Below, piece after piece: positions 3,001 through 6,000 of a stretch of 16,647 nucleotides of DNA (its first letter is position 1; every line of letters begins with the position of its first letter). Origin of the DNA: Synechococcus sp. GTDB taxonomy: Bacteria > Cyanobacteriota > Cyanobacteriia > Thermostichales > PCC-7336. Position numbers: made by a program. The DNA lies in the NCBI GenBank assembly GCA_051439605.1, contig JBFRWN010000090.1:1-16647 (forward strand), written 5' to 3'.

Positions 3001-6000
3001 GATTGAATAGCTCGGTATCCGCCTTGGCCACATAAAATCCGCAGAAGGCGCGCGCAGCAGAGCTAAAGGTGATTGCGGCCACGATAGCCAGTAGGACGGC
3101 AGTTAGCGATCGCGCGAATCTCATCAGGTTGTCCTCTCAGCAAAGTCGTTTGTGGGGAATTGTCAGTTCATCTTCGTGGCCAGTATGACGCGCTGGAAGT
3201 CTCCACAGAAGCTGGTTTCACTTACCGTAACGAGGAGGCGATTTGAAGCTTGCATAGCCCACTGCCGGTCAACTTATAGAGAGAGATCGCCAAGTTTTCA
3301 GTCTAAATCCAGCATTCGCAGACAGACTTCTTGCTCGAGTTCAAAGGTAGCTGCCGTCTTCCAGAATGCCTGTGAGAGCGAGCCTTATCAGCAGGCATCC
3401 AGACCCGTCGTACTTCATTCAACTTTGGGACTATTTGTCATCTGTTCAAGGGCAACCCCCCCACAGGCAGCTCGAATCTCCCCATAGACGAGCTCCGGTT
3501 TTTGCTGATAGCGCTTTGAGAAATGAAACGGCACCAGTCGTTCCACGTTTGCTGCAGCAGCTATTTCTCCACAGGCAAGCGTGGTGAGATGTTGAGTGCG
3601 GGCCGCTTGAACCCGGTCTGCTTCCACAAAAGAAGCTTCTAGAAACAATAGTTGAGCATCTCGGGCGTGAGCGATCGCTTTCTGGCGATTTGACAGCGTA
3701 TCGGCCAAGTCAGTGGCGTAAACCAACTTGAGTCCGGGTTCGAACCGGCGAACCAAGACTTTGCTCAACGTTTCTACCAGTTCGCAGCGACCGTCAGGCA
3801 GTTCTATAGAAGCATCCCCTTCTCCCTTTTGAAGGTGAACCCGCAGCTCCTCCAACCAAGGTCCGGTTTCCAGCCCTAACCAGGGAAGGCGATCTTCGCG
3901 GATATCGTATCGATCGTCTATCTCTAGAGCAAAAGACAGGACAGGAATGCCATGGTCCAGCGCGATCGCCCGAACTCGCAGACCTGACTCCTGCAGCACA
4001 AGCCCCTCGGAGATAGTTCGTTCTCCTAATCTATGGGGTGGGCATCCCGCTTTGATGGTTGTAAGGGCGAGATATCCATCGCAGACATCTGCCACCTCAA
4101 ACTCGGGTCCTTCATTCCCGATCCGGTCCCACTCGATTCCAGAGACTAAGTGGGCAATGCGATTGCCGATGCCGGGGGGGCCGTAGAGCCTGCAAGCAGG
4201 AAACCTGCCGCTCATGCGGGCGCGCAACAACCACAGGAAACCGGCGATGTGGTCGAAATGGGCGTGACTGATAAACACATCGGTGACGGCATGCAAAGCG
4301 CGGCGAGTCAGGAGTCGCGTCTCTCCTAAATCGAACAGAAAAGAACGACCGGTTTTATTCAATTGCACCTGCAGCAGGGGATCTCCAAAGATGCCGTTCA
4401 CTAGCGTGGCGGAGAGAGGACCGGCCTGCACGCTGAATGAGCGCCAAGGCTTGACGGTAGAGCCAAGAATGATTTGCGGTCCGGACGCGTCCCGCTTTGG
4501 CGGCTTGGCAGTTACGAGCATCCCATCGGAGCGACGAACGGCATCGCGCACCAGCAAGGCATTTGCTTCTGAGGCTTCTCCACAGATCCTGACTCGAAGG
4601 ATGGATTCCTCTAAAGCGATTGCCTCGCCAAAAGCAACCCACTGGCTGTCGCGCAACAGCGCCACCTGACGGCCCTGCCATGCTGCGGATAATGCTTTAG
4701 AGGGTGGTGTTCCCAGCAGGTGGGCTTGCTCGAGCGAAATATCGCGGATTGTAGACTGCGCCAGGTACTCATCCCACAGTTGCGTCCGCGCGCGTGCCCG
4801 TGTTTTCTTATTGGGCCGGCGAGCATTTGGTGCTGCGATCGCCCAAAAGACCTGAGTAGGAACTGCACCCAGTTCCCCTACTAGCGGAGTGGCAGAGGAC
4901 TGACGCGCCAGCATTAAAACGGCATCCGCTGCAATGCTGTTCGTTAGAGCTAATAAGAGTTCGGAGCCCGCTACTCCTTTGACAACGCCGGGGGCATCGA
5001 CGAGCAACACCCCCTCCGATACACAGCTGGCCAATCGAGCGACGGCTCGAACAATGGGCAGTCGGAAACGAACCGCGTCTAAACTGCATACAGGCTCAAG
5101 CTCAAGCAACTGCCAGGCATCGTGACGCCACTCCCCCAAACCGATCGCCCCCGGCACACCAAATGCTGGAGAGCCAGGATCGGCACCAATGCAGAAAACT
5201 GCCCTGCCGCTGTCTGCAACAACCCGGGCCAATTTGGCAACCAGTGTCGATTTTCCTGTCCCCATGTCCCCATACAGCAGAATCCGCTCGTATTTGCTAA
5301 GAAAGCGCTCTGCGATTGTTACAGCGTTTAGGGGGAGTTCGATGAAGCAATCGTTCATAACTGCAGGTCATTCTGTGCCGATGGTATCGAAAAGCAATCT
5401 GCTGCGATCGTCAACGATTGCGGGGAAGTCACGAGGCCTCACGAAGTGAAGTTCGTCCCATATGCCCTACTCAGGTTGTTCGGTGTTGAGCAACAGTACT
5501 GTGCAGGGGGCATGATGCACAACGTAATTGCTTACGCTCCCTAATACCATTTCCGCGATGCCCCTCAGACCGCGACGGCCCACAACGATAAGATCCGCAT
5601 CCCACTCTCGGGCAACGTCGCAGATAGTCCGTCCGGGGGTGCCAAATTTGTGGTTGGTTTCAATCTGGATTGTTGCGTCTGGGATTTGCTCCGAATCGGG
5701 GTAAAGCGCTGCTTCGGCTTGCTTGGCATAGGTTTGAATTAGCTCTAAACCGAGCTTGTTCCGAATTTGCAAGTTCTCAATGTAAGCGCCTATCGATGTC
5801 ATGTGGAGGGGCAGATCCACTTCTCCCACCGTTTCTCTGGGGGGAACCGGGTAGGGGTCGAAAATGGGTGCGGTGACGTGAAGCAACATCAAATTTGTGC
5901 CGAGCACTTTCGACAGAGAGATTGCTCGCTCTAAAACTTGCTCGCCAATGACAGAATCATCCAGAGCCACCAGGATTTTGTTAAACATGCGTTGCGTTCT

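Follow-up and report, generated by a model that had tools for sequence, protein, structure and literature searches.

A Clp1-type kinase fused to an RNase Z-fold domain in a Synechococcus genome, with a possible role in healing both ends of broken RNA

The window analysed here, a stretch of 16,647 nucleotides from Synechococcus sp., carries on its reverse strand an open reading frame (positions 3415..5358) of 647 amino acids, with zero internal stops in the translation of the source contig. All features described below lie on this strand. The gene joins a Clp1-type kinase to an RNase Z-like nuclease domain in one chain, as a preliminary description of the locus had stated, and the agreement of open reading frame, Pfam, NCBIfam, AlphaFold2 and Foldseek confirms the fusion as real. 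An assembly chimera is ruled out because contigs from public runs connect the gene with the sequence on either side: a record from a run that may be the source sample (X1) covers positions 2618-5809, and one from another study (X3) covers 4771-5902. The AlphaFold2 model, built with 89 sequences, has a pLDDT of 91.0 and a pTM of 0.61, and drops below a pLDDT of 50 in a flexible linker (residues 289-304; 4447..4494). A universal stress protein (USP) gene (5467..5988; Pfam Usp, E 3e-32), given as context only, lies 108 bp upstream on the same strand; in genomes of the same genus, the DUF2330 and USP homologues do not lie within 1.5 kb of one another, and the USP match is just ~50%. Scans for promoter-like and terminator sites around the fusion gene stayed at chance level, and no repair gene adjoins it in the window.

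The kinase half (about residues 24-200; 4759..5289) was delimited with Pfam CLP1_P, column counts and Foldseek. CLP1_P matches residues 30-200 (E 3.6e-15, 56.7 bits against a cut-off of 26.6), and Foldseek returned the human TSEN chain 8hmy_E (E 3.6e-14), C. elegans Clp1 (4ohy/4oi1, E ~1e-12) and yeast 7y18 (E 1.6e-10), so that domain and fold are both those of the Clp1/Grc3 family. Residue conservation was scored on 89 close relatives and 54 distant fusions. Every residue named in the preliminary description is present and 94-100% conserved in the close relatives, where each kinase core position is kept in at least 86 of 89. The Walker A motif (GxxxxGK[T/S]) runs from G30 to S37 with G30, K36 and S37 in place, the lysine being found in 88/89 close and 46/54 distant members. 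The catalytic aspartate of the [D/E]hhQ motif, as defined in PMC5900568 (excerpts), is D60 in the sequence DPGS (89/89 close, 51/54 distant), D121 stands in DAPGV, and the lid arginines R187 (86/89), R189 and R191 (89/89) are all present. The glutamine of [D/E]hhQ is replaced by Ser63 and occurs in 12/54 distant members, and the clasp [T/S/L]xGW reads APGV, with Val125 for the tryptophan. The claim that both active sites are intact thus holds for the catalytic residues, but not for Ser63, Val125 and, in the other half of the protein, an NGxFGDP sequence that takes the place of the PxKxRN loop. In Grc3, Q286A lowers activity just four- to five-fold and W364A nearly abolishes it (PMC5900568, excerpts). 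The clasp tryptophan may not define the bacterial Clp1 branch, since it is also absent from all five stand-alone bacterial Clp1 proteins examined.

A beta-rich domain (about residues 201-288; 4495..4758), assigned from DSSP of the model and alignment with stand-alone Clp1, follows the kinase and is also found in stand-alone bacterial Clp1. With these proteins, of which Ts-Clp1 from Thermus scotoductus is a proven RNA 5'-kinase (PMC6777427, excerpts), the fusion further shares CLP1_P, Walker A, the catalytic aspartate, the lid arginines, a short N-terminus and a patchy, horizontally spread distribution. It differs in having DPG[S/Q/R/L/T] and an LDAxRFR loop where the five have DVGQ and VGxxxP, and in the attached RNase Z domain, of which the searched text and supplement of PMC6777427 make no mention. 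The Saito 2019 supplement, in the part available, includes Clp1 of M. tundripaludum and of Nitrosomonas Nm166 with N-termini of ~100 amino acids, and the Nm166 protein does not fit the fusion frame. No study of a Clp1-RNase Z fusion was found in the literature searched, which excludes Burroughs & Aravind 2016, and neither PMC4275035 nor PMC6514570 mentions Clp1 or lactamase. The earlier remark that no bacterial nuclease-Clp1 machine has been studied is correct to that extent, although a bacterial Clp1 kinase had already been published (Ts-Clp1, PMC6777427, excerpts).

The C-terminal half (about residues 307-640; 3439..4440) is a metallo-beta-lactamase domain of RNase Z fold and PRK02126 subfamily, placed by NCBIfam, alignments and column counts. 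The NCBIfam model PRK02126, ribonuclease Z, matches residues 315-640 with E 6.3e-76 and 255.6 bits, under its cut-off of 315; the equivalog TIGR02651 reaches 104.9 bits against a cut-off of 292.95. Pfam Lactamase_B_2 matches with E 5.2e-13, and Foldseek returned B. subtilis RNase Z 2fk6 (E 6.7e-19). The metal site is complete (H365xH367xD369H370, H469, D550, H590, H612), with HxHxDH and motifs III-V present, as is S614xR616Y, and the Glu574-His590 pair is kept within LEAS and HLT variants of the motifs HEAT and HST. A flexible arm, or exosite (about residues 480-542; 3733..3921), located by alignment to 1y44/2fk6 and by profile alignment, bears the GP-type motif G495-x3-G499-P500-W501, of which G499 and W501 are invariant in the 89 close relatives; in RNase Z this arm binds tRNA (PMC3790967, excerpts). 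Profile alignment to the ordinary RNase Z of host relatives placed NGxFGDP at the PxKxRN loop (for whose role see PMC3161902 and PMC11602120, excerpts), and D326, invariant-like, sits in this altered loop beside the active site. The domain resembles short-form RNase Z (1y44/2fk6; ZipD/RNase BN, 2cbn) in fold, HxHxDH, motifs III-V, Glu-His pair and GP-type exosite, but differs from it in the missing PxKxRN, the scores under both NCBIfam cut-offs, its separate clade and the extra kinase. Identity with the housekeeping RNase Z was rejected: the host has an ordinary RNase Z as a separate gene on another contig (C124), and such a gene is also present in 30/30 host relatives. A quick IQ-TREE search puts the fusion in a clade apart from the host's ordinary RNase Z.

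The RNase Z domain may cut CCA ends, since it is without PxKxRN, a loop associated with CCA anti-determination. It could then act as a nuclease that resets tRNA 3' ends by endonucleolytic cleavage of whole or damaged CCA ends or of trailers, after which the tRNA would be rebuilt or destroyed, with the Clp1 domain as an accessory RNA-binding module or an independent kinase. We regard this as unlikely, though it accords with the retained exosite and full metal site and with plant TM-type short RNases Z, which also lack PxKxRN and are predicted to ignore CCA (PMC3161902). The many stand-alone copies agree with it as well, as does a nuclease core intact in 52/54 distant fusions against 44/54 for the kinase core, which is degenerate or unaligned in the other ten while the metal site stays. 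Against it, the host is already provided with an ordinary RNase Z, the 89-member main clade shows next to no variation in the kinase core, and the adjacency to rtcA or MJ1316 described below is explained no better than by end healing.

RNase Z-fold metal hydrolases yield 3'-OH and 5'-phosphate ends, whereas the Las1 and TSEN nucleases, which are not metallo-beta-lactamases, leave 5'-OH ends. The mechanism first put forward for this protein, a nuclease cut that leaves a 5'-OH for the tethered kinase to phosphorylate, by the logic of Las1-Grc3, is poorly supported because the nuclease fold leaves 5'-phosphates and 10/54 distant fusions have lost the kinase core. Both activities in one chain and a mostly monophyletic fused clade speak for it, and the altered loop with D326 beside the active site leaves room for unusual chemistry. 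Still, the metal site and Glu-His pair are those of an ordinary RNase Z, the fold is not the HEPN fold of a 5'-OH-leaving nuclease, the nuclease often stands alone and distant members have frequently lost the kinase; we consider the mechanism very improbable. As to the analogies drawn with it, Las1 is a HEPN nuclease of other chemistry (PMC5900568, excerpts), and for the CPSF73-Clp1 comparison, yeast Clp1 has no kinase activity (PMC6777427, excerpts). What the fusion does share with Las1-Grc3 (PMC5900568, excerpts) and TSEN-CLP1 is a Clp1/Grc3-family kinase tied to a nuclease, with products that would not be resealed.

The fusion family is widespread and mostly proteobacterial. Its loci were found by an alignment scan, a single-protein locus scan having returned none, and no fusion longer than 1133 amino acids appeared at E 1e-10 (weak evidence). 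In the quick IQ-TREE search the fused members form one mostly monophyletic clade, in which the host fusion is nested among proteobacterial ones. As the fusion was found in 0/400 further genomes from the host phylum and is nested in this way, its acquisition by horizontal transfer, already proposed in the preliminary description, is supported. The gene is not compositionally foreign, because its codon score (30th percentile of long host frames) and GC3 (0.56) are ordinary for the host and no GC step surrounds it; a recent foreign insert was rejected. The nuclease half is far commoner without the kinase than with it in two samples (26/29 and 35/36 without). Two Desulfobacterota frames of 625-646 amino acids have no kinase match, and a search for shorter family members returned mostly fusion fragments.

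The absence of a conserved neighbourhood, reported from 10 loci, did not survive a survey of 80, where rtcA or rtcB lies within ~2 kb of the fusion in 7/80 against a roughly estimated chance expectation of at most 0.23; 73/80 lack any rtc gene within 5 kb. Same-strand runs comprise rtcB-archease-fusion (L064), fusion-rtcA (L027), rtcA-fusion (L035 and L163) and MJ1316-fusion (L159), and such adjacency turns up again on separate tree branches. MJ1316, described as recognising 2',3'-cyclic ends (PMC6514570), was not found in the host or at any of the 80 loci. Stand-alone relatives in Methylococcales show an rnz-metallophosphoesterase-archease-rtcB run in 6/6 loci, which were selected for that run and belong to one clade. 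Long, archease-type RtcB is found in 29/29 carriers against 19/112 non-carriers in Methylococcales, in 17/24 against 40/276 in Gammaproteobacteria, in 7/11 full fusions of an unbiased class sample and in 36/50 fusion genomes, all counts that include kin and are hence non-independent. Desulfobacterota show no enrichment (31/36 carriers against 72/85), and neither rtcB nor archease occurs within 5 kb of any of their 17 stand-alone loci. The host itself encodes long RtcB, archease and RtcA, all on contigs other than that of the fusion, and elsewhere in its phylum long RtcB is present in only 5/200 genomes. The RtcB link is thus not obligatory, and the counts suggest that the fusion spreads between bacteria along with RNA-repair genes, in an association that is partial and is absent in Desulfobacterota.

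Other recurrent neighbours are as frequent as the rtc genes: nitroreductase (9), CheR-like (8), PBP (7) and HHH (6). The CheR-like methyltransferase, presumably unrelated to RNA, occurs in 6/29 carriers against 0/51. Shared island membership may account for part or all of the rtc signal, because the CheR-like gene tracks the family too and the other neighbours recur as often as the rtc genes. The metal domain could be a non-RNA phosphodiesterase of a stress-repair island, acting on protein adducts, cyclic nucleotides or guanylylated or adenylylated nucleic-acid ends, with the rtc link reflecting the common gene pool only. The island genes, which include PCMT (protein repair), HHH and EndoV (DNA-repair-like) and redox genes, fit this view together with the CheR-like control, and an RNase Z has been reported as a protein deAMPylase (PMC12663964, excerpts). 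However, the tRNA-binding exosite is retained, the fusion partner belongs to an RNA kinase family, and same-strand adjacency to rtcA, rtcB-archease and MJ1316 is seen in separate branches, which leaves such a role with a small chance of being correct.

A role of the fusion in RNA end processing or repair is supported. As a nearly even prospect, we propose that it is a two-ended RNA healing enzyme working beside RtcB, archease and RtcA. When RNA breaks by transesterification, the ends left are a 5'-OH and a 2',3'-cyclic phosphate. With ATP, the Clp1 domain would convert the former to a 5'-phosphate; the RNase Z-fold domain, its exosite gripping a tRNA-shaped RNA, would remove the cyclic phosphate or trim a damaged 3' tail to leave a 3'-OH, in the manner of human ELAC1 and rice TMS5. 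These two RNase Z-fold enzymes strip 2',3'-cyclic phosphates from tRNA (PMC10275265, PMC11897441, PMC11602120, excerpts) and, like the fusion, are second copies beside a housekeeping enzyme; they differ in being eukaryotic and kinase-free and in acting after ANKZF1/Vms1 cleavage. Once healed, the product would be closed to joining by RtcB and would require no ligase: tRNA termini would pass to CCA re-addition and fragments to exonucleases. RtcB would seal internal nicks and the fusion enzyme would take termini and leftovers. In favour of this reading count the kinase core kept here and in close relatives, the loss of PxKxRN shared with plant TM-type enzymes, the separate housekeeping RNase Z and the rtc counts given above; against it count the kinase cores lost in distant fusions, the substitutions at Ser63 and Val125, the Desulfobacterota counts and the island genes that recur as often as rtc genes.

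Were the same chemistry followed by an ATP-dependent RNA ligase joining 5'-phosphate and 3'-OH ends, in the style of Pnkp-Hen1 or T4 Pnkp-Rnl1, the fusion products would be suitable substrates, and one fusion genome without RtcB (G463) carries a PF09414 gene ~40 kb from the fusion. Yet PF09414, the one ligase family searched for across genomes, exceeds its cut-off in just 9/51 genomes and in none of the host's genes, and no such ligase turned up in the fusion chain or in those recurrent or adjacent neighbours that were scanned; we give sealing of this kind very little credence. Two-ended healing would resemble T4 PNKP and bacterial Pnkp (PMC6777427, excerpts) in that a single chain would deal with 5'-OH ends as well as ends of 3'-phosphate type, but with another kinase family, another phosphatase fold, no ligase domain and an association with RtcB instead.

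In animals, CLP1, like the removal of cyclic phosphates, deprives RTCB of substrates (PMC13247085). By analogy with CLP1 plus ELAC1/ANGEL2, the family might be a one-chain gatekeeper of RtcB ligation, a rather doubtful extension under which both RtcB-compatible ends would be converted and broken tRNA termini rebuilt or destroyed, not mis-joined or circularised. If so, PRK02126 "ribonuclease Z" would be a misnamed RNA-repair phosphatase and the first prokaryotic RNase Z-fold remover of tRNA cyclic phosphates. Bacterial Clp1 kinases are active yet have no assigned pathway, and PRK02126 was named by similarity only; the fusion and its rtcB/archease/rtcA/MJ1316 context offer a testable role for both. 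Two-ended healing, if right, would amount to a bacterial branch that competes with RtcB and mirrors the CLP1-versus-RTCB question of animals, built from a combination of domains found in none of T4 PNKP, Pnkp and Trl1. The fusion is a small single protein, convenient for biochemical assay.

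The fusion gene g03018 (positions 3415–5358, minus strand) is an uninterrupted open frame of 647 amino acids, in which Pfam places CLP1_P at residues 30–200 (E = 3.6e-15), together with a metallo-beta-lactamase domain. The top NCBIfam match is PRK02126 'ribonuclease Z' (residues 315–640, E = 6.3e-76, 255.6 bits against a cut-off of 315), and the ordinary RNase Z model TIGR02651 gives 104.9 bits against a cut-off of 292.95. An AlphaFold2 model based on an 89-sequence alignment (pLDDT 91.0, pTM 0.61) has a disordered linker at residues 289–304. Foldseek matched the nuclease half to B. 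subtilis RNase Z (E = 6.7e-19) and E. coli ZipD, and the kinase half to human CLP1 in TSEN (E = 3.6e-14), C. elegans Clp1 and the yeast ITS2 complex. Public contigs extend from the gene into both neighbours; a record that is possibly the source sample covers 2618–5809, and another, from a separate study, covers 4771–5902. The fusion of kinase and RNase Z-like domain is real. In a strain-level contig of run X1, all six differences lie in the intergenic flanks (3346–3410 and 5452–5466), none within the 1944-nt gene. One 897-aa family member, P0082, carries an additional C-terminal HAD-family domain, a single case that could be read-through.

In column counts over 89 close relatives, Walker A, D60, D121 and the lid residues R187/R191 are each kept in 86 or more. 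Against the published Clp1/Grc3 motifs [D/E]hhQ and [T/S/L]xGW, as given in PMC5900568, the fusion protein has Ser63 for Gln and Val125 for Trp; 12 of the 54 distant cluster representatives retain the Gln, and the clasp Trp is also missing from five stand-alone bacterial Clp1 proteins. The kinase half is a divergent Clp1-family domain that departs from the family at two RNA-binding motif residues. In the nuclease half, HxHxDH, H469, D550, E574, H590, H612 and SxRY are invariant among the 89, save one D369 exception, and a GP-type exosite is retained, with NGxFGDP standing where ordinary RNase Z has its PxKxRN loop. This half is RNase Z-like, but lacks the PxKxRN loop and scores below the cut-off of ordinary RNase Z. 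The 54 distant full-length proteins include 10 whose kinase core is degenerate or unaligned (in one case because of an alignment gap) and 2 of which the same is true for the nuclease core. In nine of the distant fusions (P0229, P0232, P0250, P0259, P0262, P0272, P0313, P0314 and P0322) the nuclease is intact and either Walker A or the catalytic Asp is degenerate; these are a pseudokinase-bearing branch.

The family is widespread: 1446 of 8000 scored candidates of 355–1133 aa matched at E ≤ 0.001, and both domains were present in all 120 among the matches listed. In databases, members already go under the names 'ribonuclease Z' or 'Clp1/GlmU family protein'. A pattern search of GTDB genomes gave 598 hits, of which 527 encode a relative, some of these perhaps nucleases that stand alone; every one of the 80 loci kept is a fusion, most of them in Gammaproteobacteria and some in Desulfobacterota, Nitrospirota and Acidobacteriota. 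Of 300 Gammaproteobacteria sampled, 11 carry the full fusion. In a quickly computed tree of 80 nuclease domains, 39 of 41 fused sequences fall in one branch (SH-aLRT 96), which includes one secondarily split member and is separate from stand-alone PRK02126 and ordinary RNase Z. Nested within it, on a long branch, are the window protein and two relatives of 75% identity. A search of 400 further genomes from the host phylum turned up no copy of the fusion, and ordinary RNase Z is the sole form in 30 of 30 relatives. Just 6 of 42 host tRNA predictions encode their CCA end, so an ordinary RNase Z is needed, and the host has its own on contig C124. This host acquired the fusion as an accessory gene, whose codon use is no longer foreign.

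The preliminary description saw no conserved neighbourhood, which does not hold for the 80 fusion loci: 4 have rtcB no more than ~2 kb away and 3 have rtcA no more than 0.7 kb away, against a generous chance expectation of 0.23. The arrangements vary and sit on different tree branches, namely rtcB-archease-fusion (L064), archease-rtcB followed by one or two genes and the fusion (L015, L019, L032), fusion-rtcA (L027), rtcA-fusion (L035) and a divergent rtcA (L007). Seven additional loci, taken from the 11 fusions of the unbiased Gammaproteobacteria sample, include rtcA directly upstream in L163, MJ1316 directly upstream in L159, and rtcA-archease-rtcB at a distance of 9–12 kb in L160. MJ1316, described as a recogniser of 2',3'-cyclic RNA ends (PMC6514570), also adjoins three stand-alone relatives (L115, L120, L137). 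It is present in 7/14 fusion genomes, 6/10 RtcB-only genomes and 0/10 with neither, and was not found in the host genome. L137 (G674:C5, 4483–6038) is a secondarily split, nuclease-only member nested among fusions, with a convergent MJ1316 and a Macro-domain gene 2 kb off. DUF6763, directly upstream on the same strand of stand-alone PRK02126 genes and some fusions (L116–L122, L022, L160, L164), is a candidate partner, itself uncharacterised.

At the genome level, in the order to which Methylobacter luteus belongs, long (archease-type) RtcB occurs in 29/29 carriers of a PRK02126-type domain (26 stand-alone and 3 fused, of which one has an internal stop) versus 19/112 others (G513, one of the 19, is unpublished). 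Ten of the 26 stand-alones lie 2–4 kb upstream of rtcB. In the six loci fetched, all of one clade (L103–L108, Methylococcales; G492, G484, G507, G517, G502, G497), a same-strand PRK02126 gene, calcineurin-like metallophosphoesterase, archease and long RtcB follow one another, with a convergent DUF1614, and form a candidate four-gene RNA repair operon. In Gammaproteobacteria, long RtcB was found in 17/24 carriers (G952 unscored; G995, one of the 7 exceptions, unpublished) versus 40/276 others, and it is present in 36 of 50 fusion genomes, the better assemblies picked from the 80. The host has archease-rtcB on contig C89 and rtcA on C118; elsewhere in its phylum, just 5 of 200 genomes carry long RtcB. 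Related genomes do not count as independent, so the Fisher values for these comparisons overstate.

Other counts limit this association. Long RtcB accompanies only 7 of the 11 full fusions of the unbiased Gammaproteobacteria sample; in Desulfobacterota it is not enriched in carriers (31/36 versus 72/85), and of 17 stand-alone loci there, none has rtcB or archease closer than 5 kb. No rtc gene lies within 5 kb at 73 of the 80 fusion loci. The family is a member of a mobile stress-repair gene set, because other neighbours recur as often as rtc (nitroreductase 9, CheR-like methyltransferase 8, PBP 7, HHH 6, PCMT 5 and PRT 5 in 80 loci) and a control gene, CheR-like, tracks carriers (6/29 versus 0/51 non-carriers, in 80 of the 141 genomes searched). 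Repeated adjacency suggests, and does not prove, direct coupling to RtcB. The host has homologues of almost all genes in the proteobacterial island set (archease-RtcB, RtcA, PCMT twice, CapA-like, EndoV, HHH, PBP, CheR-like, NTPase_1, DUF72, HPF-CSD, metallophosphoesterase and DUF1614), scattered over C89, C118, C50, C105, C26, C68, C124, C69 and C75, suggesting that it took up this gene pool repeatedly. At L110 (672–3587), a stand-alone Clp1 lies between a nitroreductase and a CheR-like gene, the fusions' two commonest neighbours.

Hydrolysis by the RNase Z fold yields a 3'-OH and a 5'-phosphate, and a 5'-kinase is therefore without a task on the enzyme's own product. This makes it very doubtful that the nuclease leaves a 5'-OH for the tethered kinase, as had been proposed earlier. 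It is 5'-OH and 2',3'-cyclic phosphate ends that call for both a 5'-kinase and a 3' enzyme, and RtcB (end chemistry in PMC3973293), RtcA and MJ1316 handle these ends too. ELAC1 and rice TMS5, both short forms of RNase Z, are described as stripping 2',3'-cyclic phosphate from tRNA ahead of CCA re-addition (PMC10275265, PMC11897441, PMC11602120), a stand-alone bacterial Clp1 is reported to phosphorylate RNA 5'-OH (PMC6777427), and in animals both reactions take substrates from RTCB, according to PMC13247085. Together with the product chemistry, these precedents lead us to favour, tentatively, a two-ended healer of tRNA-shaped RNA acting beside RtcB, in which the Clp1 domain would convert 5'-OH to 5'-phosphate and the RNase Z-fold domain would remove the 2',3'-cyclic phosphate. 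A nuclease that resets CCA ends is unlikely, and a non-RNA phosphodiesterase or deAMPylase, for which PMC12663964 can be cited, is quite unlikely. Sealing of the healed ends seems highly improbable, as just 9 of 51 genomes, the host not among them, have a PF09414 ATP-dependent ligase above the cut-off; ends left by the two-ended healer would therefore likely regain their CCA or be degraded. Such an enzyme resembles Pnkp in logic, yet it is not a Pnkp, its kinase being Clp1-family and its nuclease RNase Z-like. In the literature searched, subscription papers and Burroughs & Aravind 2016 (which may list the fusion) excepted, no work on the fusion or on the rnz-archease-rtcB run came up, and the searched text of Saito 2019 (PMC6777427), supplement text included, leaves the fusion unmentioned. 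We report as new the association of the fusion family with RtcB, RtcA and MJ1316, and that association's limits.

Elsewhere in the window, Pfam identifies a fibrillin gene, which fits the cyanobacterial host named in the preliminary description. Positions 1–1030 (minus strand) hold the first part of a long secreted-type protein rich in Gly and Asp, which is truncated where the contig ends and preceded by an AT-rich stretch at ~1050–1750. In two same-genus genomes (L093, G403:C47; L095, G401:C110), a USP gene lies less than 1 kb from ordinary rnz, and in the host a different USP adjoins the fusion, possibly by coincidence. A tRNA-Asp(GTC) gene at 11784–11857 (minus strand) is overlapped by a called 212-aa ORF (11789–12427), whose true start is therefore probably further downstream.
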